From NCBI GenBank assembly GCA_965261485.1, contig CBDHCY010000005.1, positions 1,484,901 through 1,548,900 of the forward strand: a DNA stretch of 64,000 bases. Reading direction: 5' to 3'. The notes below the pieces were generated by a model, which was given only the letters and a program-made list of their open reading frames with translations, ran no database searches and was not told the DNA's origin. A program made the position numbers and the translations under genes. The stretch is from Leptospiria bacterium (GTDB lineage Bacteria; Spirochaetota; Leptospiria; Turneriellales; CBDBES01). This document shows positions 2,204 through 56,656 of the stretch, piece after piece. Numbering within the stretch: the stretch's first letter is position 1; the number at the start of each line of letters is the position of its first letter.

Positions 2204-2448
2204 CACCCATCAAATTGAAAATTCAAAGTTAAATTGAGGTTCAGCCTACTTTTTATTGTTATAGTGGCGGCATTGGCTGAGCTTCATAAGCACCCACTAA
2301 ATTCAAATTCAAATTCAAATTGAAAGTTGAAAGTGGAAAATTGAGGTTCAGCCCACCTTTTTATTGTGATAGTGGCGGCATTGGCTGAGCTTCATAAGCA
2401 CCTATCAAATTGAAAGTGGAAAATTGAGGTTCAGCCTACTTTTTATTG
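2204..2448 (-). repeat. 3'-tail cassette array A1 (a partial unit plus 2 full extra units) downstream of P1
   Basis: The motif TAGTGGCGGCATTGGCTGAGCTTCATAAGCACC recurs at about 2269 and 2369 and again as the true P1 gene end at 2449. Units are separated by CAAATT/GAAAGT-type hexamers. Confidence 0.85.
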
Positions 2449-4475
2449 TTATAGTGGCGGCATTGGCTGATACTCATAAGCACCCATGTCAATGAGAGGG
2501 CCTGCACTAGCAGACTTGCCCTTTACAATACGAGGCTTGCCGGCTAGGTCTAGGGCACCTGCTGGGAATAAAGGCGTCCCAGTAGGCCCATTACTACCCG
2601 CATCAATCGCAGGTGAACCCATCATTAAACTTAAATCATCATCGAGCGTGCCAAAAACATTATCAACACCATCGGCGTCTGCAAACAGAAGGTCATCATC
2701 AGCAGCGTCAATGTTATTACCAGTATTACCAGAAGCACAACTATTAGACCCCGTCCACCAATCGGTACTCACAGTACTATCACTACAATCTTGAATCAGG
2801 CTGTGTGAAATAGTAACTGTATCAGCAGAATCTCGATTACAAAAATTCATATTACCTTGGGGACTGCCTCCAGTACAAGCCGTCGCTGTATTGTCCCACA
2901 TAATGACATTGATCAAAATAAGACCAGAAGCGGTATTTACCATACCGCCACCGCCACCATTACTAGTGGCTGTATTGCCTGAAAAAATAACATTATTCAA
3001 AGTTACATCAGTACCATTATTACGCATACCGCCACTAGAAAAATCAGCCTTATTACCTGAGAAAATAACATTACTCAAAATAAAACGAAGACCAGTAATA
3101 ATAAATAGACCGCCTCCAGCATCATTAGACTTATTACCTGAGAAAATAACATTACTCAATGTTAAATCATCACTAGCACTACTAAACATACCGCCGCCAC
3201 CAGTAGCACTGCCAGCACTCAAACCAGCAGCACGATTACCTGAGAAAATAATATTACTTAATATTAAATTATTACCCTGTAAATTATAAAGACCGCCGCC
3301 ATTCGATCTCACTTGACCAGTACCATTTGATTGACCAGCTGTAATCGTAAACCCGTCTAAAGTTGTATTAGCCGCCCCTGTAACAACCGTATAAACATTG
3401 TTACCCTTAATATCGCTAGTAACTGTGGTGCTACCAGTCATAACTCGATTGGTCGTTTCTGTAACGCCATCAGCATTAACCGTGTCATTATTATCAATGT
3501 CACCGCTGAGAATAGTTTTATTCACCCGCCAGTTACGCTCACTTAATAAAGTATCTGCGACATCAAAACCACCATAGACCTTGACATTTGATTTCAATTG
3601 AAAAGTAGCATCTCTTCTATCAGAAGTTGTAGACGTAGGCTTATAAATACCTTTAGCCACCACAATCTTATTAGTGCCTGCAGAAGATGTTAACGCTAAG
3701 TTTAGAGAGCTATAAGCATTCGACCAACTCGTGCCATCATCCGTGCCATTCGCAGCAGCATTCACAAAAATAATTTTATCAGAGCTTTTCGTTGCTTCGA
3801 TCTCAACACCCGCGGCGTAATTATGGCTTGCATCATAAGCGAAGATTTTATAATAGTAGGCGGTGTTTACCGTTGCGGCACTAACGCCGAAATCAGAAGA
3901 ATTAGCACTCTGCACCACCTCTGAGCCACCAATATCACCACCAACCGTATATTCTTCACCAGCACTAGGCACGTCTACTATTGAGCTTGTATTTCTTAAG
4001 ATTAAAACACCAGAGAAATCAGCATCTGTCGGGTTTGCCCAAACAATCACGTTTAAGTCTCCAAAAGTAGCACCACTCACCACGGCTGGTGCCTCTGTAT
4101 CTGTTGGATCAGAATTTGTTCCACCGGGATTTGTTCCGCCGGGATTCTTGCCACCGGGATCTGTTGGGTCAGGATTTTTCCCGCCGGGCTCTATTGGCAC
4201 AGCCGGATCTTTAGCATCGTCGGAGCAAGAGACGTTAAAGGCAAAAAAAATAAGGATTAATAATAAACCTTGAGTAACCTTGAGTAACCTTGAGTAACCT
4301 TGAGTAACCTTGAGTAACCTTGAGTAACCTTGAGTAACCTTGAGTAACCTTGAGTAACCTTGAGTAACCTTGAGTAACCTTGAGTAACCTTGAGTAACCT
4401 TGAGTAACCTTGAGTAACCTTGAGTAACCTTGAGTAACCTTTGTGAGTTGATTTAAGTGCTTTTAATAGTTTCAT
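2449..4475 (-). CDS. P1: phase-variable Pmp-like / choice-of-anchor-Q-like beta-helix surface lipoprotein; leader and body currently out of frame (OFF)
   Basis: Body ORF 2449-4200 (583 aa) plus leader ORF 4257-4475 (MKLLKALKSTHK followed by repeat-encoded GYSRLLKVTQ...). Body features: lipobox segment GLLLILIFFAFNVSC|SDDAKDP readable upstream in the body frame; Pro/Gly linker PGGKNPDPTDPGG; Fn3-like block (ADFSGVLILRNT...YYYKIFAYDASHNY); repeated LSNVIFSGNxA...GGG[LM] beta-helix units; C-terminal DADGVDN..SPAIDAGS..DLAGKPRIV..IDMGAYE. The frame breaks only at the 17-unit decamer tract. Confidence 0.8.
4268..4441 (-). repeat. decamer tract, 17 perfect copies of CCTTGAGTAA (coding strand TTACTCAAGG)
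   Basis: Counted directly: units run from 4268 to 4437, then a partial CCTT. The tract lies between the ATG (4475) and the lipobox codons. Confidence 0.95.
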
Positions 4476-4563: not shown

Positions 4564-5522
4564 AAATTCAAAGTTAAATTGAGGTTCGGCCTACTTTTTT
4601 ATTGTGATAGTGGCGGCATTGGCTGAAACCCATAAACACCCATCAAATTCAAATTCAAATTGACAATTGAAAATAGAAAATGGAAAATTGAGGTTCAGCC
4701 TACTTTTTTATTGTGATAGTGGCGGCATTGGCTGAAACCCATAAACACCCATCAAATTCAAATTCAAATTGACAATTGAAAATAGAAAATTGAGGTTCAG
4801 CCTACCTTTTTATTGTTATAGTGGCGGCATTGGCTGATACTCATAAGCACCCATCAAATAGAAAATGGAAAATTGAGGTTCAGCCTACTTTTTTATTGTG
4901 ATAGTGGCGGCATTGGCTGAGCTTCATAAGCACCCACCAAATTGACAATTGAAAATAGAAAATGGAAAATTGAGGTTCAGCCTACTTTTTTATTGTGATA
5001 GTGGCGGCATTGGCTGAGCTTCATAAGCACCCACCAAATTGACAATTGAAAATTGAGGTTCAGCCTACTTTTTTATTGTGATAGTGGCGGCATTGGCTGA
5101 GCTTCATAAGCACCCACCAAATAGAAAATGGAAAATTGAGGTTCGGCCTACCTTTTATTGTGATAGTGGCGGCATTGGCTGAGCTTCATAAGCACCCATC
5201 AAATTCAAATTCAAATTCAAATTCAAATTGAAAGTTGAAAATGGAAAATTAAAAGTTCAGCCTACTTTTTTATTGTTATAGTGGCGGCATTGCCTGAAAC
5301 CCATAAACACCCACCAAATTGAAAATTGAAAATTGAGGTTCGGCCTACCTTTTATTGTGATAGTGGCGGCATTGGCTGAGCTTCATAAGCACCCACCAAA
5401 TTGAAAATGGAAAATTGAGGTTCGGCCTACTTTTTATTGTGATAGTGGCGGCATTGCCTGAAACCCATAAACACCCACCAAATTGACAATTGAAAATTGA
5501 GGTTCAGCCTACTTTTTTATTG
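4564..5522 (-). repeat. 3'-tail cassette array A2 (10 extra units) between the P2 stop and the P1 promoter
   Basis: TAGTGGCGGCATTG starts at 4608, 4717, 4819, 4902, 4999, 5082, 5164, 5279, 5361 and 5443, and at the true gene end 5526. Unit lengths are 109, 102, 83, 97, 83, 82, 115, 82, 82 and 83 bp. Confidence 0.9.
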
Positions 5523-7446
5523 TTATAGTGGCGGCATTGGCTGAAACTCGTAAGCACCCATGTCAATGAGAGGGCCTGAACTAGCAGACTTGCCCTTTAC
5601 AATACGAGCCTTGCCGGCTAGGTCTAGGGCACCTGCTGGGAATAAAGGCGTCCCACTAGACCCATTACTACCCGCATCAATCGCAGGTGAAGTCGCCGTT
5701 AAACGTAAATCATCATCGAGCGTGCCAGCAACATTATCAACACCATCGGCGTCTGCAAACAGAGGGTCAGCGTCAATATTATTACCAGTATTACCAGAAG
5801 CACAACTATTAGCATGCCCTGATGCCCACCAATTGGTATCCGTGCTACAACCTTGAATCAGGCTGTGTGAAATAGTAACTATTCCAGAAGAACTGCCGTT
5901 GCAAAAATTAATATTACCTTTTGCTGTCCCTACAGGACAAGCTAGGGACATATTATCTGAAAAAATAACATTACTCAGTTTTAAACCAGTACCACTATTG
6001 AACAGACCGCCACCAACAGAATCAGACTTATTGCCTGAAAAAATAACGTTACTCAAAGTTGCATTAGTACTAGAATTAAAGAAACCGCCGCCAACAGTAA
6101 CAGCCCAATTGCCTGAGAAAATAACATTACTCAGTTTTAAACCAGTACCACCATTGAACAGACCGCCACCACCAAAACCGCCAGAACTATGATTACTGGC
6201 TGTATTGCCTGAGAAGATAACATTACTCAAAGTTAAATCCCCAGCAGCAGTATACATACCGCCGCCAGAATCGGCACTATTGCCTGAGAAGATAATATTA
6301 CTCAAAGTTAAATTATCACCACTACTATTATTATATATACCGCCACCAGAACTTCTACCACCACTAGAACCATTTGATAGACCAGCTGTAATCGTAAAGC
6401 CCTCTAAAGTTGTACCAGCCGCCCCTGTAACAACCGTATAAACATTGTTACCCTTAATATCGCTAGTAACTGTGGTGCTACCAGTCATAACTCGATTGGT
6501 CGTTTCTGTAACGCCATCAGCATTAACGATGTCATTATTATCAATGTCACCGCTGAGAATAGTTTTATTCACCAGCCAGTTACGCTCACTTAACGAGGCA
6601 TCTGCGACATCAAAACCACCATAGACCTTGACATTTGATTTCAATTGAAAAGTAGCACTTCTATCAGAAGTTGTAGACGTAGGCTTATAAACACCTTTAG
6701 CCACCACAATCTTATTAGTGACTGCAGAAGATGTTAACGCTGAGTTTAGAGAGCTATAAGCATTCGACCAACTCGTGCCATCACCCGTGCCACTCGCAGC
6801 AGCATTCACAAAAATAGTCTTATCAGAGCTTCTCGTTGCAGATATCTCAACACCCGCGGCGTAATTATGGCTTGCATCATAAGCGAAGATTTTATAATAG
6901 TAGGCGGTGTTTACCGTTGCGGCACTAACGCCGAAATCAGAAGAATTTGCACTCTGCACCACCTCTGAGCTACCAATATCACCACCAACCGTATATTCTT
7001 CACCAGCACTAGGCACGTCTACTATTGAGCTTGTATTTCTTAAGATTAAAACACCAGAGAAATCAGCATCTGTCGGGTTTGCCCAAACAATCACGTTTAA
7101 GTCTCCAAAAGTAGCACCACTCACCACGGCTGGTGCCTCTGTATCTGTTGAGACAGGAGTCGTTGGCATATTCGGATTTGTTCCGCCGGGATCTGTTGGG
7201 TCAGGGTTCTTTCCGCCGGGCTCTATTGGCACAGCCGGATCTTTAGCATCGTCAGAGCAAGAGACGTTAAAGGCAAAAAAAATAAGGATTAATAATAAAC
7301 CTTGAGTAACCTTGAGTAACCTTGAGTAACCTTGAGTAACCTTGAGTAACCTTGAGTAACCTTGAGTAACCTTGAGTAACCTTGAGTAACCTTGAGTAAC
7401 CTTGAGTAACCTTTTGAGTTGATTTAAGTGCTTTTAATAGTTTCAT
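5523..7446 (-). CDS. P2: phase-variable beta-helix surface lipoprotein paralog, currently OFF
   Basis: Body ORF 5523-7232 (569 aa) has the same architecture as P1. The ATG at 7446-7444 (MKLLKALKSTQK) is separated from the lipobox by an 11-unit decamer tract and is out of frame with the body. Confidence 0.8.
7300..7413 (-). repeat. decamer tract, 11 perfect copies of CCTTGAGTAA
   Basis: Counted directly: units run from 7300 to 7409, followed by CCTTTTGAG. Confidence 0.95.
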
Positions 7447-7450
7447 GTCT

Positions 7451-7479
7451 TCTTATCGTACACAAGGATAATCTGTCAA
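7451..7479 (-). promoter_or_regulatory. candidate promoter of P2 (TTGACA-17-ATAAGA)
   Basis: Identical sequence and spacing to the P1 promoter. The -10 is at 7456-7451 and the -35 at 7479-7474. Confidence 0.35.
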
Positions 7480-7534
7480 TAAAAAAATGTTTTTTATAAT
7501 TTATGAATACCTTGGAATCTAAAGACGTCTAATG

Positions 7535-8469
7535 AAATTCAAAGTTAAATTGAGGTTCAGCCTACTTTTTTATTGTGATAGTGGCGGCATTGCCTGAAAC
7601 CCATAAACACCCATCAAATTCAAATTCAAATTGACAATTAAAAATGGAAAATTAAAAGTTCAGCCTACTTTTTTATTGTTATAGTGGCGGCATTGCCTGA
7701 AACCCATAAACACCCATCAAATTCAAATTCAAATTGACAATTGAAAATAGAAAATTGAGGTTCAGCCTACCTTTTTATTATGATAGTGGCGGCATTGCCT
7801 GAAACCCATAAACACCCATCAAATTCAAATTCAAATTGACAATTGAAAATAGAAAATTGAGGTTCAGCCTACCTTTTTATTATGATAGTGGCGGCATTGG
7901 CTGAGCTTCATAAGCACCCATCAAATTGAAAGTTGAAATTGACAATTGAAAGTGGAAAATTAAAAATTCAGCCTACCTTTTTATTGTTATAGTGGCGGCA
8001 TTGCCTGAAACCCATAAACACCCATCAAATTCAAATTCAAATTCAAATTCAAATTGAAAGTTGAAAATGGAAAATTAAAAGTTCAGCCTACTTTTTTATT
8101 GTGATAGTGGCGGCATTGCCTGAAACCCATAAACACCCATCAAATTCAAATTAAAATTGACAATTGAAAGTGGAAAATTGAGGTTCAGCCTACCTTTTTA
8201 TTGTGATAGTGGCGGCATTGGCTGAGCTTCATAAGCACCTATCAAATTGAAAGTTGAAAGTGGAAAATTGAGGTTCAGCCTACTTTTTTATTGTTATAGT
8301 GGCGGCATTGGCTGAGCTTCATAAACACCCATCAAATTCAAATTCAAATTCAAATTGAAAATGGAAAATTGAGGTTCAGCCTACTTTTTATTGTTATAGT
8401 GGCGGCATTGGCTGAGCTTCATAAGCACCCACCAAATTGACAATTGAGGTTCAGCCTACCTTTTTATTG
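7535..8469 (-). repeat. 3'-tail cassette array A3 (9 extra units) between the P3 stop and the P2 promoter
   Basis: Nine copies of ATAGTGGCGGCATTG[GC]CTGA... precede the true P3 end at 8470. There are two tail alleles (GAGCTTCATAAGCACCC and GAAACCCATAAACACCC) and one hybrid (GAGCTTCATAAACACCC, about 8310). Confidence 0.9.
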
Positions 8470-10471
8470 TTATAGTGGCGGCATTGGCTGAAACTCGTAA
8501 GCACCCATGTCAATGAGAGGGCCTGCACTAGCAGACTTGCCCTTTACAATACGAGGCTTGCCGGCTAGGTCTAGGGCACCTGCTGGGAATAAAGGCGTCC
8601 CACTAGACCCATTACTACCCGCATCAATCGCAGGTGAACCCATCATTAAACTTAAATCATCATCGAGCGTGCCAAAAACATTATCAACACCATCAGCGTC
8701 TGCAAACAGAGGGTCAGCGTCAATGTTATTACCAGTATTACCAGAAGCACAACTATTAGCATGCGTTGATGCCCACCAATTGGTATCCGTGCTACAACCT
8801 TGAATCAGGCTGTGTGAAATAGTAACTGTTCCAGTAGAACTGCTGTTGCAAAAATTCATATTACCTTTTGTTGTCCCTACAGGACAATCTGAGGACATAT
8901 TATCTGAAAAAATAACATTACTCAGTTTTAAACCAGCACCACCATTAAACAGACCGCCACCAGCAGAATCAGACTTATTGCCTAAAAAAGTAACGTTACT
9001 CAAAGTTACATCCTCACCACCATTACGCATACCCCCACCAACAATCTTAGACTTATTGCCTGAGAAAATAACATTACTCAAAATTAAATCCTCACCACCA
9101 TTATTAGAGAACCCGCCGCCGCCCAAAAGGCCAGAACCATGATTACTGGCTGTATTGCCTGAAAAAATAACATTACTCAAAGTCATATTCATACCACCAC
9201 TATTATACATACCGCCGCCAGAATCGGCTAGATTGCCTGAGAAGATAATATTACTCAAAGTTACATTAGCACTACTACCACCATCATTATACAGACCGCC
9301 GCCAGCTGCAGCACTACTACTAGAACCATTTGATAGACCAGCTGTAATCGTAAAGCCCTCTAAAGTTGTATTAGACGCCCCTGTAACAACCGTATAAACA
9401 TTGTTACCCTTAATATCGCTAGTAACTGTGGTGCTACCAGTCATAACTCGATTGGTCGTTTCTGTAACGCCATCAGCATTAACCGTGTCATTATTATCAA
9501 TGTCACCGCTGAGAATAGTTTTATTCACCAGCCAGTTACGCTCACTTAATAAAGTATCTGCGACATCAAAACCACCATAGACCTTGACATTTGATTTCAA
9601 TTGAAAAGTAGCATTTCTCCCAGGAGTTGAAGACGTAGGCGTAGGCTTATAAATACCTTTAGCCACCACAATCTTATTAGTACCTGCAGAAGATGTTAAC
9701 GCTAAGTTTAGAGAGCTATAAGCATTCGACCAACTCGTGCCATCACCTGTACCACTCGCAGCAGCATTCACAAAAATAGTCTTATCAGAACTTTCTCTCG
9801 TTGCTTCGATCTCAACACCCGCGGCATAATTATGGCTTGCATCATAAGCGAAGATTTTATAATAGTAGGCGGTGCCTGCCGTTGTGGCACTAACGCCGAA
9901 ATCAGAAGAATTAGCACTCTGCACCACCTCTGAGCTACCAATATCACCACCAACCGTATATTCTACACCAGCACTAGGCACGTCTGCTATTGAGACTGTG
10001 TTTCTTAAGATTAAAACCCCAGAGAAATCAGCATCTGTCGGGTTTGCCCAAACAATCACGTTTAAGTCTCCAAAAGTAGCACCACTCACCCCAGCTGGTG
10101 CCTCTGTATCTGTTGGATCAGGAATCAACCCGCCGGGATTTTTCCCACTGGGATCTGTTGGGTCAGGGTTCTTTCCGCCGGGCTCTATTGGCACAGCCGG
10201 ATCTTTAGCATCGTCAGAGCAAGAGACGTTAAAGGCAAAAAAAATAAGGATTAATAATAAACCTTGAGTAACCTTGAGTAACCTTGAGTAACCTTGAGTA
10301 ACCTTGAGTAACCTTGAGTAACCTTGAGTAACCTTGAGTAACCTTGAGTAACCTTGAGTAACCTTGAGTAACCTTGAGTAACCTTGAGTAACCTTGAGTA
10401 ACCTTGAGTAACCTTTGAGTAACCTTTGAGTAACCTTTGTGAGTTGATTTAAGTGCTTTTAATAGTTTCAT
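8470..10471 (-). CDS. P3: phase-variable beta-helix surface lipoprotein paralog, currently OFF
   Basis: Body ORF 8470-10194 (574 aa) plus leader ORF 10229-10471 (MKLLKALKSTHKGYSKVTQRLLKV...). The leader frame ends in ...FIINPYFFCL*, which is the lipobox region read in the wrong frame. Confidence 0.8.
10262..10436 (-). repeat. decamer tract, 15 perfect copies plus two 11-bp variants (CCTTTGAGTAA)
   Basis: Counted directly: perfect units run from 10262 to 10411, with variant units at 10412-10433. Confidence 0.95.
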
Positions 10472-14504: not shown

Positions 14505-15824
14505 ATGAATCAGACAACATCTAGAGAGCACTTCATTATTGAAGGGAAAAATCAGATATCAGGTATCATTGAGCCTCAAGGCAATAAAAATGAAGCTCTT
14601 CCCATTTTATGTTGTAGTTTACTCAATAAAAATCAATTGAGTATATATAACATCCCCCTAATTACAGATATTCAACAATTACTTAAAATACTTAAATTTT
14701 TAGGAGCAGAGATTAAAATAATATCGAAGGAAAAGCCTTCTGAAATACAAATTAATACCTCTAATGTTCATTACTCAGATCTTCCGGCCGAATTAGTTCA
14801 GCTACTGAGAGGCTCAATTACTTTAATCGCTCCGATGCTGGCTAGATTTAAAAGAGTTGTTTTACCTAGGCCCGGTGGAGATAAAATTGGTCGCAGAAGG
14901 ATAGATACCCATCTATTAGCACTAAAAGCTTTAGGGGCTTCTGTTGAAGTTCTAAAAAATTCTTATCATCTGAAAGCAGAAAGGTTGATTGGTACATCAA
15001 TTTTATTAGATGAATGCTCTGTAACCGCTACTGAAAATACAATTATGGCCGCGGCTGTAGCGTGCGGAGAAACTATTATAGAAAATGCTGCATCAGAGCC
15101 ACATGTTCAAGGGCTTTGTAAGTTCCTTCAGAATCAGGGTGTGGATATTCGGGGTATTGGAAGTAATCAGCTTAAAATAACAGGTGTTGAAGATTATAAA
15201 AATCTGACCCCCGCAAAACATACTATTGCTCCAGATTATCTGGAGATTGGTGGTTTTATCTCTATGGCAGCTTTAACAAATGGTGAGCTTCTTATTAAGA
15301 ATGTCGTCAAACGCGACCTAAGAATGATTCAATTTGTATATCAAAAGTTAGGTATTGAAATAGAATATCGTAATTCAGATGTTTGGATTGGTAAAAATCA
15401 GATGTTAAAAATAAAATCTGATATTCATGGGGATATTCCTAAAATTGATGATGCCCCTTGGCCTGGGTTTCCTGCCGACCTAATTTCAAATGTACTCGTT
15501 ACTGCAACACAATGCCATGGTACTATGCTAATCTATGAAAAACTTTTTGAAAGTCGTCTTTTTTTTACAGATAGACTAATTAGTATGGGAGGGCGGCTGG
15601 TTCTCTGTGATCCACATCGTGTGATCACAATTGGTCCTTCAGAACTAAGTGGTTCTCGTATGGTATCGCCTGATATTAGAGCTGGAATGGCTCTGGTGAT
15701 TGCTGCCTTATGTGCAGAAGGTAAATCAGAGATTCACAATATTTTACAAATTGATCGTGGTTATGAAAATGTTGATAAAAGACTCTGTGGAATAGGAGCT
15801 AATATTCAAAGGATAAAAGAATAA
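14505..15824 (+). CDS. murA: UDP-N-acetylglucosamine 1-carboxyvinyltransferase
   Basis: GNKNEALP near the N-terminus and active-site loop LPRPGGDKIGRRRIDTH. Length 439 aa. Asp126 occupies the position of the catalytic Cys. Confidence 0.93.
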   Translation: MNQTTSREHFIIEGKNQISGIIEPQGNKNEALPILCCSLLNKNQLSIYNIPLITDIQQLLKILKFLGAEIKIISKEKPSEIQINTSNVHYSDLPAELVQLLRGSITLIAPMLARFKRVVLPRPGGDKIGRRRIDTHLLALKALGASVEVLKNSYHLKAERLIGTSILLDECSVTATENTIMAAAVACGETIIENAASEPHVQGLCKFLQNQGVDIRGIGSNQLKITGVEDYKNLTPAKHTIAPDYLEIGGFISMAALTNGELLIKNVVKRDLRMIQFVYQKLGIEIEYRNSDVWIGKNQMLKIKSDIHGDIPKIDDAPWPGFPADLISNVLVTATQCHGTMLIYEKLFESRLFFTDRLISMGGRLVLCDPHRVITIGPSELSGSRMVSPDIRAGMALVIAALCAEGKSEIHNILQIDRGYENVDKRLCGIGANIQRIKE

Positions 15825-15873
15825 ATAAAATACTTGCTTTGGGGTAATTGTTGTCGCTACCTCTACCCAACAA

Positions 15874-16315
15874 GCAAGGCACCACTCGTAACTGGCGGTC
15901 AACCACTCTCGCCCAAGCGAGCAAGGCACCACTCGTAACTGTTGGTCAACCACTCTCGCCCAGCGAGCAAGGCACCACTCGTAACTGGCGGTCAACCACT
16001 CTCGCCCAAGCGAGCAAGGCACCACTCGTAACTGGCGGTCAACCACTCTCGCCCAAGCGAGCAAGGCACCACTCGTAACTGTTGGTCAACCACTCTCGCC
16101 CAGCGAGCAAGGCACCACTCGTAACTGGCGGTCAACCACTCTCGCCCAAGCGAGCAAGGCACCACTCGCAACTGGCGGTCAACCACTCTCGCCCAGCGAG
16201 CAAGGTACCACTCGTAACTGGCGGTCAACCACTCTCGCCCAAGCGAGCAAGGCACCACTCGCAACTGGCGGTCAACCACTCTCGCCCAGCGAGCAAGGCA
16301 CCACTCGTAACTGTT
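15874..16315. repeat. GC-rich 46/47-bp tandem minisatellite (9 full units plus a partial unit)
   Basis: The unit is GCAAGGCACCACTCGTAACTGGCGGTCAACCACTCTCGCCCAAGCGA. Unit starts are at 15874, 15921, 15967, 16014, 16061, 16107, 16154, 16200, 16247 and 16293, giving lengths 47, 46, 47, 47, 46, 47, 46, 47 and 46. The array fills the convergent gap between murA and the 1150-aa surface protein gene. Confidence 0.9.
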
Positions 16316-16325
16316 GATTGTCCGT

Positions 16326-19300
16326 CTATCGTTGTTGCCCAGCGATCAGATCGCCGTATGACCCACACAAATCAGTGATGGATAGGGTGCTCGTATCAAC
16401 GGTTGAGACGCAAAGCTTAACCGCAGGCAACTGCTCGTCGGTTCCTAGCTCCCAAGCTTTTGTGTCATCCTCCATCATATCGTTAGGAGTCATATCATGA
16501 GGCAAACCATCAGGATGCATGCCACTTATGGCTTTTAGTTGCATTAACGTAAGGCCCGTCGCACCTGATACGTCCGTCACCATCACAACACCTCCCATTT
16601 CTGAAACCGCAGCATTACCCTGTGCCCGCTTGGGGCTTTGGGGAGTCACAGTCATTCCATTAGTTATTTCTTGAGATACCTCTGTATTCCAATAACTATC
16701 TGTAACTGTTAAAGAAGTCAAAGGATTATCAAAATAACCCACTAAACCGCCAGAATAAAGATTGGAGGATCCAGATCCAGACTCGGATTCAGACTCAGAT
16801 TCAGACTCAGATTCAGACTCAGATTCAGATTCAGAGGACCCAAAGGAATTAGAGGAAGAAATTTCAGCAGAACATGCCATCATGGAGGGGGGGCTGCTCA
16901 TAGAAGGGGGGCTGCTCACAGGAGGACAATCAAGCCCACCAAAATAACTATTCTCAATTGTCAAAAATTTAGAATAACCCACTAATCCACCAGAAGCAGC
17001 TTTAGAAGAAGAAGAAGAAGAGATTTTACCAAGACCAGTAAAATAACTATTCTCAATTGTCAAATTAGCACGCATGCCCGTTTCACCTACAATACCACCA
17101 GAATAAGAAGAAGAGGAAGAAGAGGAAAGAGGCTGAAAAGAAGAAGAAGATAAAATATTAATATCTCCACTAAAATAACTATTTTGAATTATTAAATCAG
17201 TTTCAGCATACCCAACGAGACCTCCAGAAGCAGAAAATCTATTAGTATTAAAAGATAATTTAGAAGAAGAGATTTCACTTTCATCACTACCAGAGAAAGA
17301 ACTATAACTATTGATAATTGTTATGGCAATATCAGCATCAGTCATTCTAGAGATTAATGTCTTACCCACCAGACCGCCAGCAGTAGAAGAAAAAGAAGAA
17401 GCAAGAGAAGTGATTTTATTGTTACCACTACCAGAGAAAGAACTATAACTATTGATAATTGTTATAGCAAAATTAGAGGTATTAGAATTATCCAATCCAG
17501 CTTGACCGATTAGCCCGCCAGATGAAGAACGAGAAGCAGAAGAAGAAATTTTTTTCTCACCATTACCAGAAAAAAAACTACGACTATTGTCAATTGTGAG
17601 ATTAATATTGACAGGGTTATCAGAACTGCAATCAGAGTTATCAGAATTGCAATCAGACATAAGTATTTGACCCATCAACCCACCAGATGAAGAACGAGAA
17701 ACAGAAGTGCTAGAAGAAGCAGAAGTGATTTTATGAGCATAATTACCAGAAAAAGAACTAAAACTATTCTTAATCATTATATCAGCATTCGTATTTGATA
17801 CCTCAGTGTGCCCTATTAAACCACCAGAAAAAGAAAGCTCTAAAGAGAAAGAAGAGATTTTATCATCATCATCACCAATACGAATACCAGAGAAAGAACT
17901 AGAACTGTTCTTAATCATTATATTGTTAGCCTTTCCCATAATCTTCAAAGATTTCACATTGCCCACCAAGCCACCGGAAAAAGAAGAGGAAGAAGAAGAA
18001 GAAATGATTTCATTACCAGAGAAAGAACTACCCGTTATCGTCAATGAACCAATTATACGACCTGCTAAACCACCTGAGTAAGCGAAAGATCGATCACGAC
18101 CAGCCATTACAACAGGAGCATAAGATAAGGCTCCGCCACCAGAAAAACTACTATTTGTGATCATCAAATTAACGAAAGCCCCCCCCACTAAACCGCCCGA
18201 ATAAGAATAAGAACAATTACCGTTAAAAGTAGAGATCAAACAAGCATCAACAGAAGACGAATAAGAAGAAACTTCATTAAATCCACTAAAAGTACAATTT
18301 TCGATCGCCAAAGAAGATTTAGCATAACCGACCAAACCACCTGAATAAGCAACACCAGAACTGAAAGCACGGGAATATATCGAACCCAAACTGACCTCCA
18401 CGTTGCGTATTTCAGATTCTCCACCATCGGTAGCACCAAACAGACCAGCGTAAACTTCATCTGACTGAGAACGAATATTCACCCATAGGTTGGTTATGGT
18501 ATGTCTATTACCTTCAAAAATACCCGTGAAGGGATTATTACCATCACCAATAGGTATCCAACTAATGTCTTTGTTTGTATCAATGACACTTACTTGATCA
18601 TTTGAGTCAGAAGTATTACTATTACCATTTTTATCAATGTCAACCATCGTTGTATCAATACCCCTACTTTTATTTGCATCAAGCAAACTCAAAAGATCAA
18701 TGTTCGTTGTCAACTCATAGCCTTTACAGACACCCGATGGGCAACCACCTGAAATACCAGGATCACTACTCGAAGTTTTATAGCTAGCACCCGATAAATC
18801 GTAGCGAATGTTGTGGAGCATTATATCATTATCAATTTCGATGAGACCATCGTGATCCATGTCAACCTCATCATTATTGATCAAAGAAAATGCAACCTCT
18901 TCAAGATTTGAAAAACTAACTTGGTTAAAATTTGAATCAGTCGTGGTTACACGATGTTTAAGAGTATAAAAAAAATCATAGCTCTTTTCAGAATCTTCGA
19001 GATAGCAAATTTCAATCTCTTTAGATATATTAAAATTTGTGGAATCAAAAGTAATACTTGTTGGGTCTATGCTTGGCATCACTCTAAAAGGTAGAATTGT
19101 CTCTGAATAAATCTCGATGGTGAGGTTAGTAATAGGTCTTTTATCCACCAAAGTTGATCTTGTTCTTGAATCAATCTCTATTGTGAAATCAGTATTCGTT
19201 TCTTCTAACAAACGTATTGAATAATGTCCGCAAGTTCCTCCTTCATTAAGGTTAATATTCCGTGCAGTTATTGTTACTCCTTTAAGTTTAAGTGAAGTAT

Positions 19301-19778
19301 TATTGATAAAATGAGCGATAAGGTTCGGAAAACGAGCAAAAGTCATTTGATTAAAGCTTGGCTGATTGCTTGCTATACGATGCTTTATGATATAATAAAA
19401 ATCATCATTTCTCACAGTATCTTCAGGGTAACCGATTACAACTGTTTGAGCTTTATTAAAATTGGTGACATTAAAAGTAATGCTTGTTGGGTTTATTCTT
19501 GGTATTACTCCAAAAGGTGGGGATGTATCTGAATAAATTTCAACAGTGAGGTCAGTACTAGGTTTTTTTGACAAACGTATTGAATAACCAACCTCAGTTC
19601 CCTTTTTGACGGTAATCTCTTGCATATTTAGTATCAGCCTGAGAGTAGTGCCCTTTTTAGCAATTTCGGGAGGTGGTACTACATTTGAACACCGAAGAAA
19701 AAAAAGACAAGTAAGGATAATAATAATAAATATCTGCTTTAGGTGAATAAGAATGAGATTTTTAATCGTCTGTTTCAT
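16326..19778 (-). CDS. large Ser-rich secreted/surface protein with GLUG-motif beta-helix repeats
   Basis: N-terminal hydrophobic signal; three ~100-aa related Ig/Calx-like modules (TVEIYSDTSPPFGVIPRINPTSITF, TIEIYSETILPFRVMPSIDPTSITF); a GLUG-type entry segment (WIPIGDGNNPFTGIFEGNRHTITNLWV...YAGLFG); many SGGL[VIM]G repeats separated by Ser-rich SSFSG modules; and an (SE)n run. Confidence 0.7.
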   Translation of the reverse strand: MKQTIKNLILIHLKQIFIIIILTCLFFLRCSNVVPPPEIAKKGTTLRLILNMQEITVKKGTEVGYSIRLSKKPSTDLTVEIYSDTSPPFGVIPRINPTSITFNVTNFNKAQTVVIGYPEDTVRNDDFYYIIKHRIASNQPSFNQMTFARFPNLIAHFINNTSLKLKGVTITARNINLNEGGTCGHYSIRLLEETNTDFTIEIDSRTRSTLVDKRPITNLTIEIYSETILPFRVMPSIDPTSITFDSTNFNISKEIEICYLEDSEKSYDFFYTLKHRVTTTDSNFNQVSFSNLEEVAFSLINNDEVDMDHDGLIEIDNDIMLHNIRYDLSGASYKTSSSDPGISGGCPSGVCKGYELTTNIDLLSLLDANKSRGIDTTMVDIDKNGNSNTSDSNDQVSVIDTNKDISWIPIGDGNNPFTGIFEGNRHTITNLWVNIRSQSDEVYAGLFGATDGGESEIRNVEVSLGSIYSRAFSSGVAYSGGLVGYAKSSLAIENCTFSGFNEVSSYSSSVDACLISTFNGNCSYSYSGGLVGGAFVNLMITNSSFSGGGALSYAPVVMAGRDRSFAYSGGLAGRIIGSLTITGSSFSGNEIISSSSSSSFSGGLVGNVKSLKIMGKANNIMIKNSSSSFSGIRIGDDDDKISSFSLELSFSGGLIGHTEVSNTNADIMIKNSFSSFSGNYAHKITSASSSTSVSRSSSGGLMGQILMSDCNSDNSDCSSDNPVNINLTIDNSRSFFSGNGEKKISSSASRSSSGGLIGQAGLDNSNTSNFAITIINSYSSFSGSGNNKITSLASSFSSTAGGLVGKTLISRMTDADIAITIINSYSSFSGSDESEISSSKLSFNTNRFSASGGLVGYAETDLIIQNSYFSGDINILSSSSFQPLSSSSSSSYSGGIVGETGMRANLTIENSYFTGLGKISSSSSSKAASGGLVGYSKFLTIENSYFGGLDCPPVSSPPSMSSPPSMMACSAEISSSNSFGSSESESESESESESESESESGSGSSNLYSGGLVGYFDNPLTSLTVTDSYWNTEVSQEITNGMTVTPQSPKRAQGNAAVSEMGGVVMVTDVSGATGLTLMQLKAISGMHPDGLPHDMTPNDMMEDDTKAWELGTDEQLPAVKLCVSTVDTSTLSITDLCGSYGDLIAGQQR
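16766..16838 (-). repeat. in-frame hexa/dodecanucleotide repeat encoding (SE)n-GSGS
   Basis: Iterations of TCAGACTCAGAT encode SESESESESESESESESGSGSS. Confidence 0.85.
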
Positions 19779-49982: not shown

Positions 49983-50192
49983 CAAATGGAGGTTCAGCCT
50001 ACCTTTTTATTGTTATAGCGGTGGCATTGCCTGAAACTCATAAACACCCATCAAATTCAAATTGAAAGTTGAAAATGGAAAATTGAGGTTCAGCCTACTT
50101 TTTATTGTTATAGCGGCGGCATTGGCTGAGCTTCATAAGCACCCATCAAATTGAAAGTTGAAAATGGAAAATTGAAGGTTCAGATTACTTTT
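49983..50192 (-). repeat. 3'-tail cassette array A4 (2 units) downstream of P4
   Basis: Units at about 50012 (TATAGCGGTGGCATTGCCTGAAACTCATAAACACCC) and about 50108 (TATAGCGGCGGCATTGGCTGAGCTTCATAAGCACCC). Confidence 0.85.
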
Positions 50193-52122
50193 TTATTGAC
50201 TTTCGTAAGCACCCATATCTATGCTACTGCCTACAATACGAGCCTTGCCTGCTAGGTCGGTGGCACCTGCTGGGAATAAAGGCATCCCAGGAGGCCCATT
50301 ACTACCCGCATCAATCGCAGGTGAAGTCGCCATTAAACGTAAATCGTCATCAAACAGAGGGTCAGCGTCAATATTATTACCACCATCGCCATTATTGCCA
50401 GTGCTATCATCACCGTCATTATCGTCGCCACAACTACTAGTGCCCATTGCCCAAGTGGAACCACTAGCACCACAACCTTGAATCAAGCTGTGTGAAATAT
50501 TAATTATCCTATTATTAGTAGACGATCTGTTACTGCAAATATTCTGATTACCTCGGAAACTCCCTCCAGTACAAGTGCCCGCTGTATTGCCCCACATAAT
50601 GACATTAGTCAAGGTGACGGTATTTTCATTTTGAAAAAAAGCAGCTCCCCCAGCATCAGTAGCCGTATTATTTGAAAAGACAACATTATTTAAAGTGAAA
50701 TTAACAGCCGCCCTATCACTCTGCAGACCGCCACCATTAACATCAGACGTATTATCTGAAAAGACAACATTCTCTAAAATTCCATCATACCCCTCATTAT
50801 ACAGACCGCCGCCGCCCAGCCTAAAGCCGTTTGGGTCAACGCTTGCATTGCCTGAAAAAAAAACATTACTTAAATTAATAGTACTACCAACACTAGAAGA
50901 TAGTAATAGACCACCGCCACCATTAGCCGTATTACCGAAGAAAATAATATTACTCAAAGTTACATTATCATTATTTACATTACGCATACCGCCACCAAAA
51001 GCATTCCTTGGCACATTAATATCAGAACCATTTGATTGACCAGCTGTAATCGTAAAGCCCTCTAAAGTTGTATTAGACGCCCCTATAACAACCGTATAAC
51101 TATTACTACCCACAATGTGACTAGCATTTTCTATAATGCCATCATCATTAGAATCAGTATCGTCACCACCAATGTCACCGCTGAGAATAGTTTTATTCAC
51201 CCGCCAGTTACGCTGACTCAATGAATGCTCTGTACCCACGAAACCACCATAGACCTTGACCTTTGATACCAATTGAAAAGTAGCATTTCTATCAGAAGTT
51301 GTAGACGTAGGCTTATAAACACCTTTAGCCACCACAATCTTATTAGTGGCTACAGAAGATGTTAACGCTGAGTTTAGAGAGCTATAAGCATTCGACCAAC
51401 TCGTGCCATCACCCGTACCACTAGCAGCAGCATTCACAAAAATAATTTTACCTGATCGTCTTGTTGCTTCAATCTCAACACCCGCAGCGTAATTATGGCT
51501 TGCATCATAAGCAAAAATTTTATAATAGTAAGAAGTGCCTACCGTTGCGGTACTAACGCCGAAATCAGAAGAATTTGCACTCTGCACCACCTCTGAGCTA
51601 TCAATATCATCACCAACCGTATATTCTGTACCAGCACTAGGGGCGTCTACTATTGAGACTGTGTTTCTTAAGATTAAAACACCAGAGAAATCAGCATCCG
51701 CTGGGTTCATCCAAGTGATTACATTTAATAAGTCTCCAAAAGCAACGCCACTCACCACAGCTGGTGGCTCTGTATCTGTTGGATCAGGAATCGTTGGCAT
51801 ATTCGGATTTGTTCCGCCGGGATTCTTTCCACCGGGATTTGTTGGGTCAGGATTTTTCCCACTGGGCTCTATTGGCACAGCCGGACCTTTAGCATCGTCA
51901 GAGCAAGAGACGTTAAAGGCAAAAAAAATAAGGATTAATAATAAACCTTGAGTAACCTTGAGTAACCTTGAGTAACCTTGAGTAACCTTGAGTAACCTTG
52001 AGTAACCTTGAGTAACCTTGAGTAACCTTGAGTAACCTTGAGTAACCTTGAGTAACCTTGAGTAACCTTGAGTAACCTTGAGTAACCTTTTGAGTTGATT
52101 TAAGTGCTTTTAATAGTTTCAT
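50193..52122 (-). CDS. P4: phase-variable beta-helix surface lipoprotein paralog, currently OFF
   Basis: Body ORF 50193-51878 (561 aa, ends IDMGAYESQ*) plus leader ORF 51913-52122 (MKLLKALKSTQKVTQGYSRLLKV...FIINPYFFCL*). Confidence 0.8.
51946..52089 (-). repeat. decamer tract, 14 perfect copies of CCTTGAGTAA
   Basis: Counted directly: units run from 51946 to 52085, followed by CCTTTTGAG. Confidence 0.95.
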
Positions 52123-52212: not shown

Positions 52213-52422
52213 AAATTCAAATGGAGGTTCAGCCTACTTTTTTATTGTTATAGTGGCGGCATTGGCAGAGCTTCATAAAGCATCCACCAAATTCAAATCG
52301 AAAGTGGAAAATTGAGAGTTCAGCCTACTTTTTTATTGTTATAGCGGTGGCATTGGCTGAGCTTCATAAGCACCCATCAAATTCAAATTGAAAATTGAAA
52401 ATGGAAGGTTCAGATTACTTTT
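52213..52422 (-). repeat. 3'-tail cassette array A5 (2 units) downstream of P5
   Basis: Units at about 52248 and about 52342 (TATAGTGGCGGCATTGGCAGAGCTTCATAAAGCATCC and TATAGCGGTGGCATTGGCTGAGCTTCATAAGCACCC). Confidence 0.85.
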
Positions 52423-54315
52423 TTATTGACTTTCGTAAGCACCCATATCTATGCTATTGCCTACAATACGAGCCTTGCCTGCTAGGTCTAGGGCACCAGT
52501 TGCGAATAAAGGCATTCCAGTAGGCCCATTACTACCCGCATCAATCGCGGGTGAACCCGCCTTTAAACGTAAACCATCATCGGCCGTACCAAAAATATTA
52601 TCAGCACCATTGGGGTCATCAGCGTCTGCAAACAGAGGGTTATTACTATCAATATTATTACCAGTATTACCAGAAGCACAACTATTAGCATGCGTTGATG
52701 CCCACCAATTGGTATCCGTGCTACAACCTTGAATCAGGCTGTGTGAAATAGTAACTGCAACAAGCATACCGCCGCTACAAAAATTAGCATTACCTTTGGC
52801 ACTGTTTCCAGTACAAGCCATCGCCGTATTGCCCCACATAATGACATTAGTCAAAGTAAGATCAGCAGAAGCATTTGACAGACCGCCACCAGTAGTACCA
52901 GACTCATTGCCTGAGAAAATAACATTACTCAAAGTTAAACGAGGACTAGCATTACGCATACCGCCACCAAAAACAGCAGACTTATTGTCTGAGAAAATAA
53001 TATTACTCAAAGTTAAACTGAAATCAGAACTAGACAAACCGCCGCCACCAAAAGAGCTAACACGCTGATTACTGGCTGTATTGCCCGAGAAAATAATATT
53101 ACTCAAAATTAAATTCCTACCAACATTGTACATACCGCCGCCAGAATCGGCTGTATTGCCTGAGAAAATAATATTACTCAAAATTAAATTATCACTAGAA
53201 CTATGCATACCGCCCCCCAGAATAACGACACCAATACCCCTACTGGCATTTGATTGACCAGCTGTAATCGTAAAGCCCTCTAAAGTTGTATCACCCGCCC
53301 CTGTAACAACCGTATAACTATTACTACCATTAATATCGCTAGTAGCTGTGGTGCTACCAGAACTAACTCGATTGGTCGTTTCTGTAACGCCATCAGCATT
53401 AACCGTGTCATTATTATCAATGTCACCGCTGAGAATAGTTTTATTCATCCGCCAGTTACGCTCACTTAATAAAGTATCTGCGACATCAAAACCACCATAG
53501 ACCTTGACCCCTGATATCAATTGAAAAGTAGCACTTCTATCAGAAACTGAAGGTGGAGACACTAAAGGCATCGCAAGTGTAGTAGGCTTATAAACACCTT
53601 TAGCCACCACAATTTTATCACCAGTGGTGGCGACGACTCCTTCAGCAGGAGGTTTTAACACCGACCGTAGATCGCTATAAGCATTCGACCAACTCGTGCC
53701 ATCACCCGTACCACTAGCAGCAGCATTCACAAAAATAGTCTTATCAGAACTTTTTGTTGCTTCGATCTCAACACCCGCGGCGTAATTATGGCTTGCATCA
53801 TATGCGAAGATTTTATAATAGTAAGAAGTGCCCATCGTTGCGGCACTAACGCCGAAATCAGAAGAATTTGCACTCTGCACCACCTCTGAGCTACCAATAT
53901 CACCACCAACCGTATATTCTTTACCAACACTAGGAGCGTCGTCTGTTATTGAGACTGTATTTCTTAAGATTAAAACCCCAGAGAAATCAGCATCTGTCGG
54001 GTTTGCCCAAACAATCACGTTTAAGTCTCCAAAAGTAGCACCACTCACCACAGCTGGTGGCTCTGTATCTGTTGGATCAGGAATCGTTGGCATATTCGGA
54101 TTTGTTCCGCCGGGATTCTTTCCACCGGGATCTGTTGGGTCAGGGTTCTTTCCGCCGGGCTGTGTTGGCACAGCCGGATCTTTAGCATCGTCAGAGCAAG
54201 AGACGTTAAAGGCAAAAAAAATAAGGATTAATAATAAACCTTGAGTAACCTTGAGTAACCTTGAGTAACCTTGAGTAACCTTTTGAGTTGATTTAAGTGC
54301 TTTTAATAGTTTCAT
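52423..54315 (-). CDS. P5: beta-helix surface lipoprotein paralog, intact and in frame (ON)
   Basis: Single 630-aa ORF: MKLLKALKSTQKVTQGYSRLLKVTQG-LLLILIFFAFNVSC|SDDAKDPAVPTQPGGKNPDP..., followed by the Fn3-like block, FSGN/GGG repeats and a C-terminal ...IDMGAYESQ*. The decamer tract has 4 units. Confidence 0.88.
   Translation of the reverse strand: MKLLKALKSTQKVTQGYSRLLKVTQGLLLILIFFAFNVSCSDDAKDPAVPTQPGGKNPDPTDPGGKNPGGTNPNMPTIPDPTDTEPPAVVSGATFGDLNVIVWANPTDADFSGVLILRNTVSITDDAPSVGKEYTVGGDIGSSEVVQSANSSDFGVSAATMGTSYYYKIFAYDASHNYAAGVEIEATKSSDKTIFVNAAASGTGDGTSWSNAYSDLRSVLKPPAEGVVATTGDKIVVAKGVYKPTTLAMPLVSPPSVSDRSATFQLISGVKVYGGFDVADTLLSERNWRMNKTILSGDIDNNDTVNADGVTETTNRVSSGSTTATSDINGSNSYTVVTGAGDTTLEGFTITAGQSNASRGIGVVILGGGMHSSSDNLILSNIIFSGNTADSGGGMYNVGRNLILSNIIFSGNTASNQRVSSFGGGGLSSSDFSLTLSNIIFSDNKSAVFGGGMRNASPRLTLSNVIFSGNESGTTGGGLSNASADLTLTNVIMWGNTAMACTGNSAKGNANFCSGGMLVAVTISHSLIQGCSTDTNWWASTHANSCASGNTGNNIDSNNPLFADADDPNGADNIFGTADDGLRLKAGSPAIDAGSNGPTGMPLFATGALDLAGKARIVGNSIDMGAYESQ
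54239..54282 (-). repeat. decamer tract, 4 perfect copies of CCTTGAGTAA
   Basis: Counted directly: units run from 54239 to 54278, followed by CCTTTTGAG. Confidence 0.95.
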
Positions 54316-54547: not shown

Positions 54548-56656
54548 TTATTGACTTTCGTAAGCACCCATATCTATGCTACTGCCTACAATACGAGGGT
54601 TGCCGGCTAGGTCTAGGGCACCAGTTACGAATAAAACTTTCGTATTATCACTAGGATCAACATTACTACCCGCATCAATCGCGGGTGAACCCGCCCTTAA
54701 ACGTAAATCGTCATCAAACAGAGGGTCAGCGTCAATGTTATTACCACCATCAGTGCCGCATCTACTGAGATTAGTTGCTGAGCTCCAAATGGAAGAACCA
54801 CTAACACCACAATCTTGAATCAAGCTATGTGAAATAGTAGGCTGTACATTGAAGGTGCAAAAATTAACATTACCCTTAAAATTGTCTCCAGTACAAGCAG
54901 CCCCTGTATTGCCCCACATAATGACATTGGTCAAGATAGCAACAGCACTTCCAGTATTTTTGCGAATTTGACTTCCTCCACCTACATTAGTAGCTGTATT
55001 GTTTGAAAAAACAACATTAGTCAAGGTTAAATTAGCATCAACACTTTGTATACCGCCACCAAAACTGGCCATATTGCCTGAAAAAGCAACATTGGTTAAA
55101 ATAGCACCACCACCACGAATAGTAAGACCACCTCCACCCAAAATAGTAGCTGTATTGTTTGAAAAAACAATATTAGTTAAGGTTAAATTATCACTACCCT
55201 TAGCATAAAAACCGCCACCAACATTGGCTGCATTGCCTGAAAAAGTAATATTAGTTAAAGTTAAATTATGATTATCTATATTATACACGCCACCACCCCT
55301 ATTAATATAATTACCGGTACCTGCAGGAGCATTTGATTGACCAGCTGTAATCGTAAAACCGTCTAGAATGGCATCGCTCGCCCCTGTAACAACTGTATAA
55401 CTATTATTAGCGATTACAGTCATCATACCACCAGCATCCACCATTTCGGTACCCTTAATGTCATCAGCATTTTCTATAATGCCATCACGATTAGAATCAG
55501 TATCGTCACCACCAATGTCACCGCTGAGAATAGTTTTATTCACCCGCCAGTTACGCTCACTTAACGAGGCATCTGCGACATCAAAACCACCATAGACCTT
55601 GACATTTGATATCAATTGAAAGGTAGCATTTCTCCCAAGAGTTGAAAGTGTAGACCTAGGCTTATAAATACCTTTAGCCACCACAATCTGAACTGGTAGA
55701 GTCTCAGTCGCATCATCAGCTATTTTAGATTCTAACGCTGAGTTTAGGGAGCTGTAAGCATTCGACCAACTCGTGCCATCACCCGTGCCACTCGCAGCAA
55801 CATTCACAAAAATAATTTTATCAGAGATTTTCGTTGCAGAGATCTCAAAACCTGTGGCATAGTTACGGTTTGTATCATAAGTGAAGATTTTATAATAATA
55901 CTTTTTATAACGGTAAGGAATATTTTCTCCATCCTGTTCCCTTATATCTGTGAGGTCAAAGTCAAGAGATTTTGCATCGTGCACCACCTCTGAGGCACCA
56001 ATTGAAACACCAACCGTATATTCTTTACCAGCACTAGGGGCGTCTACTATTGAGCTTGTATTTCTTAAAATTAAAACTTTAGAGAAATCAGCATCTGTTG
56101 GGTTTAACCAAGTGATTTTGTTCGTGAAATCACTAAAAGTAACATCGCTCACCTCAGCTGGTGGCACTGTATCTGTCGGATTGGTTTTTGTCGAACCAGG
56201 TGTTTTGTAGTCAGCCAGTGCTGGTATATATTTATTAACCTTAGTCTGAACACCGTTGTTGTAGTAGAGATAAGTGTCACAGACAAAGATTTTATAAAAA
56301 TAAACGACATCCTCTACAACTTCTGTGTCTCTAAAAGTTGGTGCGGCTGCGTTATAGGCTACCCGTGAGGCTCCCATTGCGGTGAAGACAGGATAATCTC
56401 GCCAAGGTCTAGGAAAACCTTGGATAGCACTTGTATTCTTTAAGATTAGAACCTTATTGTAGATGTTACGGCCTCTACTCGCAGGATTCTTCCATGCTAG
56501 GGTTATCCCGCTTGAATTACGATTAACGGTAAGATCTGTGACTTCTGGTAGAGGGTCATCCAACCCATTCAAAAAATATGCACGACCAATTTTAGTGCAA
56601 TGCAGGAAAATCAGTAGGAAAAAAAAACTTATAAAAAATAGAAATCTTGAGTTCAT
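54548..56656 (-). CDS. P6: beta-helix surface protein paralog, long form with a duplicated Fn3-like domain and no decamer switch
   Basis: 702-aa intact ORF. It has a different signal peptide (MNSRFLFFISFFFLLIFLHC), two Fn3-like modules (…VYFYKIFVCDTYLYY and …YYYKIFTYDTNRNY), TLTN[IV]xFSxNxA..GGG repeats, and ends IDMGAYESQ*. Confidence 0.85.
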   Translation of the reverse strand: MNSRFLFFISFFFLLIFLHCTKIGRAYFLNGLDDPLPEVTDLTVNRNSSGITLAWKNPASRGRNIYNKVLILKNTSAIQGFPRPWRDYPVFTAMGASRVAYNAAAPTFRDTEVVEDVVYFYKIFVCDTYLYYNNGVQTKVNKYIPALADYKTPGSTKTNPTDTVPPAEVSDVTFSDFTNKITWLNPTDADFSKVLILRNTSSIVDAPSAGKEYTVGVSIGASEVVHDAKSLDFDLTDIREQDGENIPYRYKKYYYKIFTYDTNRNYATGFEISATKISDKIIFVNVAASGTGDGTSWSNAYSSLNSALESKIADDATETLPVQIVVAKGIYKPRSTLSTLGRNATFQLISNVKVYGGFDVADASLSERNWRVNKTILSGDIGGDDTDSNRDGIIENADDIKGTEMVDAGGMMTVIANNSYTVVTGASDAILDGFTITAGQSNAPAGTGNYINRGGGVYNIDNHNLTLTNITFSGNAANVGGGFYAKGSDNLTLTNIVFSNNTATILGGGGLTIRGGGAILTNVAFSGNMASFGGGIQSVDANLTLTNVVFSNNTATNVGGGSQIRKNTGSAVAILTNVIMWGNTGAACTGDNFKGNVNFCTFNVQPTISHSLIQDCGVSGSSIWSSATNLSRCGTDGGNNIDADPLFDDDLRLRAGSPAIDAGSNVDPSDNTKVLFVTGALDLAGNPRIVGSSIDMGAYESQ

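Follow-up and report, generated by a model that had tools for sequence, protein, structure and literature searches.

A decanucleotide tract as a probable slipped-strand translational switch in a family of putative spirochaetal surface lipoproteins

When a start codon and an otherwise open gene body are held out of frame by a tandem repeat, it is not obvious whether the gene is broken or merely switched off. We faced this question at P2, a gene in a 64,000-nucleotide stretch of DNA (hereafter the window) from an uncultured Leptospirales-like spirochaete, in which an array of 10-nt units lies just after the ATG. An earlier note on this DNA had read P2 as a switch that is now OFF and a single unit loss away from ON, and this reading agrees with every in-silico test that we ran. 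We consider it likely that P2 is a slipped-strand translational switch and one of at least five independently switchable surface-lipoprotein genes, and we infer high-frequency reversible switching of these genes within a population.

The repeat itself is simple. TRF placed the P2 tract at 7298-7413, with a period of 10, 11.6 copies and 100% matches, and our recount shows every unit to be perfect and bears out the 11 reported in the earlier note (whose 37-nt prefix plus 110 nt, at 7300-7446, describe the same sequence as our 7298-7407 register, shifted by 2 nt). A probe of two ACTCAAGGTT units matches the window at 56 places, where 100 shuffles give an expectation of 0.00. Read from ATG 7446, the P2 prefix is ATGAAACTATTAAAAGCACTTAAATCAACTCAAAAGGTT, followed by the 11 units and then by TATTATTAATCCTTATTTTTTTTGCCTTTAACGTCTCTTGC; the tract joins GLLLILIFFAFNVSC, which opens a body of 590 codons that runs to the stop at 5523. 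As had been claimed of the flanks, both the prefix and the junction TATTATTAATCCTTATTTTTTTTGCC (GLLLILIFFAF...) are the same, without any difference, in P2 and in P5, and ATGAAACTATTAAAAGCACTTAAATCAAC constitutes the leader sequence of the tract-bearing paralogue family. The unit contains no stops in any of the three sense frames, in which it encodes (VTQGYSRLLK)n, and has stops in the antisense direction.

Table 1 Coordinates of the tract-bearing genes, the parts of the P2 switch and the 3'-end arrays (window positions unless another contig is named).
Feature	Position	Strand	Description
P1 switch	4266..4475	minus	ATG 4475, one extra prefix base, 17 units, OFF; body 2449-4265
P2	ATG 7446	minus	11 units, OFF
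P2 conserved upstream control region	7447..7521	minus	TTGACA box; purine-rich SD-like AAGAAGAC shortly before the ATG
P2 ATG and 39-nt prefix	7408..7446	minus	ATG 7444-7446; positively charged n-region MKLLKALKSTQKV; same as P5
P2 switch tract	7298..7407	minus	11 perfect tandem ACTCAAGGTT units
P2 hydrophobic core and lipobox-like motif (G)LLLILIFFAFNVS-C	7257..7297	minus	Cys codon 7257-7259; lipobox read by eye
P2 premature TAA	7267..7269	minus	Closes the present OFF-frame product at 59 codons
P2 mature body	5523..7256	minus	Pro/Gly-rich linker, N-terminal domain, predicted right-handed beta-helix, choice-of-anchor Q C-terminus; stop 5523-5525
P3 switch	10260..10471	minus	ATG 10471, two degenerate units of 11 nt ahead of 15 perfect ones, OFF; body 8470-10259
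P4 switch	51944..52122	minus	ATG 52122, 14 units, OFF; body 50193-51943
P5	52423..54315	minus	ATG 54315, 4 units at 54237-54276, 630-aa ORF, ON
3'-end arrays in the window	2210-2484, 4576-5560, 7547-8507, 49984-50198, 52219-52428		
3'-end arrays in related contigs	L013 2437-2664; L014 1190-1473, 3280-3576		

Counted from ATG to junction, the P2 leader is 149 nt long (mod 3 = 2) and the P5 leader 79 nt (mod 3 = 1), a gap of 70 nt that equals 1 mod 3 and confirms the frame offset of 1 given previously. Removing one unit from P2 in silico yields a 637-aa ORF and adding two yields 647 aa, as had been predicted, while the remaining changes between -3 and +3 units give products of only 45-69 aa. The body frame is closed upstream by a TAA at 7436-7434, and its first ATG, GTG or TTG is GTG 7232, located 8 codons downstream of the lipobox Cys. 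Since no start codon precedes this Cys in the body frame, P2 is expected to make no exported product unless the tract changes. The 569-aa body described earlier as having no other lesion corresponds to the ORF from this GTG (5523-7232), the start-codon-limited part of the 590 codons, and is indeed free of further damage. P2 thus shows the features of a translational contingency locus: a perfect non-triplet tandem repeat stands within the ORF and begins 39 nt past the ATG; a change in unit number is enough to open or close a gene that is otherwise intact and has no alternative start; and unit number is polymorphic among close relatives with conserved flanks.

These features suggest a mechanism in which slipped-strand mispairing during replication or repair would gain or lose whole 10-nt units. 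As 10 leaves a remainder of 1 on division by 3, every unit moves the ATG among the three phases relative to the body, and with the 39-nt prefix only n = 1 mod 3 (1, 4, 7, 10, 13...) joins MKLLKALKSTQK(VTQGYSRLLK)m VTQG to LLLILIFFAFNVSC and the body, whereas the other two phases meet a stop 3 or 10 codons past the tract and give no exported lipoprotein. With n = 11, P2 is OFF and would turn ON on the loss of one unit or the gain of two. P3 and P4 are each one deletion short of ON and P1 is one insertion (or two deletions) short, in keeping with the in-silico edits that restored their frames (-1 unit in P3 and in P4, +1 or -2 units in P1). Independent switching of the copies would yield a population with mixed surface-protein repertoires. 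We also considered secondary structure of the tract as a driver of slippage and rejected it, as the single strand has no fold (MFE 0, z = +3.1).

The window contains five tract-bearing copies, every one on the minus strand, of which only P5 is ON (Table 1). P5 is 100% identical to the database protein P0001, encoded on a 2,133,161-bp contig with about eleven paralogues. Four of these paralogues (P0007, P0010, P0013 and P0014) have called starts at the internal position that the OFF copies of the window also use, and their genes probably carry out-of-frame tracts too. The database entries P0002, P0003, P0005 and P0008 are the bodies of P2, P3, P1 and P4, respectively; the public gene calls of the OFF copies begin at an internal GTG (e.g. 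7232), have no signal peptide and are annotated at lengths of 561-583 aa.

What the tract interrupts appears to be a lipoprotein signal peptide. P2 has lipoprotein-type features (MKLLKALK..., LLLILIFFAF and NVS-C), with an N at position -3 of its lipobox (FNVS-C) that fails the PROSITE-style rule; spirochaetal lipoboxes are looser than the strict rule. Two other putative lipoproteins of the window, at 54548-56656 (-) and 16326-19778 (-), carry atypical residues ahead of the cysteine (FLH-C and FLR-C), a pattern which suggests that the lipobox of this organism is loose at position -1. Relatives that have no tract, namely P0006 (contig L002; MKLLKTLKFTQGLLLILIFFAFNVSCSDD), P0012 (contig L014; MNLLKTLKSTQGYLLILVFIVFSVSCSDD) and P0011 (same genome; MKLLKALKINSRLLLILIFFAFNVSCSDD), each combine a short, charged n-region with a hydrophobic core and a cysteine, and in them the same ATG and MKLLK(T/A)LK run directly into GLLLILIFFAFNVSC. 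In DNA with exactly one unit, from L002 (...ACTCAAGGTTTATTATTAATCC) and L014 (ACTCAAGGTTACTTATTA), a proto-repeat ACTCAAGGTT(AC) lies inside a canonical short signal peptide. Judging from these sequences, the single unit of L002 and L014 is the likely seed of the repeat, and the tract looks like an expansion that separates the n-region from the hydrophobic core in an apparent lipoprotein signal peptide. The tract-bearing forms have predicted signal peptides with n-regions of 26-46 residues and, among ON forms (n = 1, 4, 10...), tract length may tune export through the length of this region.

Upstream of the ATG, about 75 nt are near-identical across P1-P5, and the related contigs L001 and L002 conserve them as well, so that the OFF copies keep their control region. 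A consensus sigma-70 promoter scan upstream of the P2 ATG returned no minus-strand site.

Variation in unit number was evident in contigs from ENA sample ERZ26693861, a single metagenome, which are syntenic with the window and whose flanking genes are nearly identical to it (RNB 99.2-99.4%, priA 99.7%). L001 has 10 units, is in frame (ON) and encodes a called protein of 675 aa; L002 has 1 unit and is also ON; and L013, in which the sequence upstream of P3 was matched at 97%, has 8 units and is OFF. All three have the same prefix and junction as the window copies. Coverage of these contigs is apparently ~3-4x (judged from record names), which makes their unit counts less secure than those of the window, and L013 contains two further frame breaks in a 15-nt repeat that are possibly errors. 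With n = 1, 8 and 10 on a ~99% identical background, our data indicate that the tract is hypervariable and that long in-frame alleles exist. At both pairs of orthologous loci (P5/L001/L002 and P3/L013), length differs and phase is equal: leaders with n = 4, 10 and 1 are all ON in the former, and leaders of 212 nt and 119 nt are both OFF in the latter. Sharing of phase at two locus pairs would occur by chance about 1 time in 9, and the sample is too small to separate this from selection on phase.

The same strains carry one family gene where the window has three, in the intervals from the acyltransferase/GPDH gene to priA and from RNB to sucA. The gene on L013 (539-2390) is a mosaic that is 99% P3-like (8470-10259) near its 5' end and 92-99% P1-like (2449-4265) over its 3' half, and the genes on L001 and L002, compared with P4 and P5, are mosaics as well. 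The mosaic structure, together with one copy instead of three, indicates that neither gene number nor the central beta-helix cassette is stable. Tandem arrays of 76-115-bp units lie downstream of each family gene, between tandem copies (Table 1). On the minus strand, the array unit starts with the last ~12 codons of the gene (...DMGAYE[FS]QPMPPL*) and continues with ~40 nt of downstream sequence; the units are mixed with (TCAAAT)n and (AAATTGA)n microsatellites and number up to ~9 upstream of P2. These arrays may be substrates for unequal recombination that alters gene number.

Searches further afield bore on the reach of the tract. The exact two-unit pattern gave 0 matches in the GTDB set of one genome per species, and a search for SucA relatives in the same set gave no confirmed locus, which indicates that the source genome and its close relatives are absent from the GTDB representatives. 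In JGI metagenomes the two-unit pattern hit 10 contigs, all with 46-67% G+C and unrelated flanks, and we rejected these as chance or unrelated matches. For the 59-aa OFF peptide, a word-indexed search produced zero candidates, and HMMER against 1.84 billion representatives produced 388 matches, the ten inspected being unrelated ORFs over other decapeptide repeats.

Could the OFF copies simply be dead? If tract expansions had inactivated redundant paralogues, P1-P4 would be decaying pseudogenes with no reversible switch, and parts of our data are in line with this: just one copy of the five is in frame, the family has been amplified recently and is partly dispensable (given the single gene in conspecific strains), and dN/dS among the bodies is high (0.6-0.9), a range that fits diversifying selection on a surface protein and equally fits relaxed constraint. 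The condition of the bodies argues against decay. They are 68-86% identical in protein (14-32% amino-acid difference; dS 0.10-0.37); along the alignment, identity runs at 86-94% across the first ~320 codon columns, falls to 66-68% for the central beta-helix and climbs to ~90% near the 3' end. None of the five contains a stop codon, whereas placing the substitutions between P2 and its paralogues at random gave means of 3.4-7.8 stops and a stop-free fraction of 0.03 to <0.0005. The 6-19 indel differences per pair of bodies are all multiples of 3 (in a nucleotide alignment that was not codon-aware), and the tract is the sole lesion in each of the four OFF genes. This combination is the signature of a reversible switch and not of pseudogenes. 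The tract has stayed 100% pure across 110 nt while the bodies diverged by 14-32% in amino acids, which points to ongoing slippage instead of an old, decaying repeat; promoter-proximal regions are intact; and in-frame alleles with 4 and 10 units exist. We therefore regard the loss of these genes to decay as improbable.

A faulty unit count is also quite improbable as an explanation. Assemblies are well known to go wrong in tandem repeats of 110-170 nt, and probable errors are present in the related low-coverage contig L013, so the P2 count could be wrong or could represent the majority of a mixture, making its placement one unit from ON unreliable. A 10-nt unit is not prone to errors of the homopolymer type, however, and five tracts on one contig and three elsewhere all have clean whole units and identical flanks. 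A mixed population, moreover, is the signature that the switch itself predicts, so that an artefact of this kind would touch the state of P2 and not the mechanism. It is highly improbable that the tract is untranslated, a variable spacer in the 5' UTR with a start downstream, such that unit number tunes expression and leaves the frame alone. In favour of this, the consensus scan gave no minus-strand promoter site and near-cognate ATC and ATT codons occur in the P2 body frame 3' of the tract, but this frame has no ATG, GTG or TTG from the upstream stop to a position past the lipobox Cys, and a start 3' of the tract would leave no charged n-region. The relatives with no tract have ATG-KLLKxLK reading straight into the hydrophobic core in one frame, and the absence of stops from the three sense frames of the unit, set against their presence in antisense, likewise suggests that the tract is translated. 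A translational switch in the signal peptide remains our preferred reading.

The protein under this putative control resembles a beta-helix surface protein. P2 matches NCBIfam NF041518 (choice-of-anchor Q) at 30.1 bits, above the cutoff of 25, over residues 576-632, and has a predicted parallel beta-helix with GGG...N/FSGN repeats. Neither P2 nor P5 has a significant match in Pfam; PF02415 (Chlam_PMP) is found in P0008 (the P4 body) and many relatives, in which Beta_helix domains also occur. AlphaFold modelled residues 190-530 of P5 as stacked short strands with pLDDT mostly >80, while residues 1-188, where the alignment is shallow, were poorly modelled. Foldseek matched the P5 model to pectate lyase Pel9A (1ru4) and rhombotarget A (9cdu), with E ~1e-4 and a target TM of ~0.5. 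The body is predicted to be a right-handed beta-helix with PMP-like repeats and is presumably surface-exposed. The 702-aa protein at 54548-56656 (-), which is P0016, is a distant family member with no tract and a weak PF02415 match.

Phylogenetic context came from the bacterial-type ProRS of the window, whose best named relatives are MAGs of Spirochaetia, Leptospiraceae and Turneriella at 51-56% identity. Neighbouring genes are ordinary housekeeping and biosynthetic genes, one of them with a CHU_C match that hinted at a Bacteroidota origin, which we rejected because the relatives of the ProRS belong to Spirochaetia/Leptospirales. Rfam and tRNA scans across the window gave no match. Elsewhere in the window, a G+C-rich tandem array of a 46/47-nt unit (15866-16313; 9.6 copies, 94% matches, no Rfam match) stands out in a region of otherwise ~35% G+C. 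It is flanked on one side by an EPSP-synthase gene (14505-15824, +) and on the other by the 3' end of the gene at 16326-19778 (-), which encodes a lipoprotein-like product of 1150 aa.

Repeat-driven phase variation is textbook biology in host-adapted pathogens such as Neisseria, Haemophilus and Campylobacter. In Neisseria, opa comprises ~11 complete genes that switch frame independently through CTCTT repeats in the signal-peptide region and are diversified by recombination (PMC4534519). The window genes likewise form a multi-copy family with a non-triplet tract in the signal-peptide coding sequence and mosaic bodies, but the unit is 10 nt here rather than 5, the product is a putative beta-helix lipoprotein rather than an 8-stranded beta-barrel, and the two share no sequence homology. 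The opa repeat encodes the hydrophobic core of the signal peptide itself, whereas the tract here codes for an extension between the n-region and the core. The hosts also differ, that of opa being a human-adapted proteobacterium and ours an uncultured Leptospirales-like spirochaete, and switching is proven for opa where we infer it for the window genes. P2 and P5 do not belong to the Opa family, given their predicted beta-helix fold and lack of a Pfam match, and the likeness is one of mechanism only.

A tract in a comparable position occurs in autA and autB of Neisseria and Haemophilus, where AAGC repeats follow closely on the start codon, within the signal sequence, and most alleles are OFF yet otherwise intact, with the ORF rebuilt by changing unit number (PMC5118866). 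These resemble the window genes in having the tract close downstream of the ATG in the signal sequence and intact OFF alleles, and differ from them in having a tetranucleotide unit, being single genes rather than a tandem family, and having autotransporter architecture; here, too, the two are not homologous. The Pmp proteins of Chlamydia share with our family a broad repeat class (PF02415 in P0008 and relatives) and a predicted beta-helix, though P2 and P5 fall below Pfam significance, have a putative lipid anchor and no autotransporter beta-barrel, and rely on a decamer instead of a homopolymer tract. Some pmp genes of C. pneumoniae vary through frameshifts in a poly-G tract. Treponema tpr, Borrelia vls/vmp and Mycoplasma Vlp/Vpma are, like the family described here, surface (lipo)protein families with hypermutable or recombinational variation. 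In tpr, homopolymer (poly-G) slippage takes place in promoters.

The switches of tpr, vls/vmp and Vlp/Vpma operate transcriptionally (through poly-G or poly-A spacing), by gene conversion or by site-specific inversion (PMC4534519, PMC2268961). Compared with these families, only the window system would be a translational frame switch in a signal peptide. The literature that we searched contained no decanucleotide phase-variation tract and no SSR frame switch in Leptospira or Leptospirales. The switch mechanism is known; the novelty lies in the unit length of 10 nt, the lineage that hosts it and the protein family.

Our data place the same switch logic, with a unit that at 10 nt is unusually long, in a lineage of uncultured spirochaetes; Turneriella and Leptospiraceae are its closest named relatives, at about 52-56% ProS identity. 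There it would act on a tandemly amplified family of beta-helix lipoproteins and be combined with gene amplification and mosaicism. If the switch is confirmed, it would imply strong fluctuating selection on the cell surface, whether from a host, a predator or phage; the 'hypothetical proteins' of 561-589 aa to which gene callers truncate these genes would be mis-annotated, switchable full-length lipoproteins; and the tracts would provide a simple amplicon assay of population heterogeneity in metagenomes. More tentatively, and with considerable doubt, we suggest that surface variation in this organism may have several tiers, with independent frame switches on probably at least nine paralogues, tandem gain and loss of genes, and mosaic reshuffling of the central beta-helix, in which the arrays of duplicated gene 3' ends could promote both gain or loss and mosaicism. 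If this is true, it would represent a new form of spirochaetal antigenic variation, similar in scope to vls/vmp and differently built, in an apparently non-pathogenic relative of the Leptospirales.
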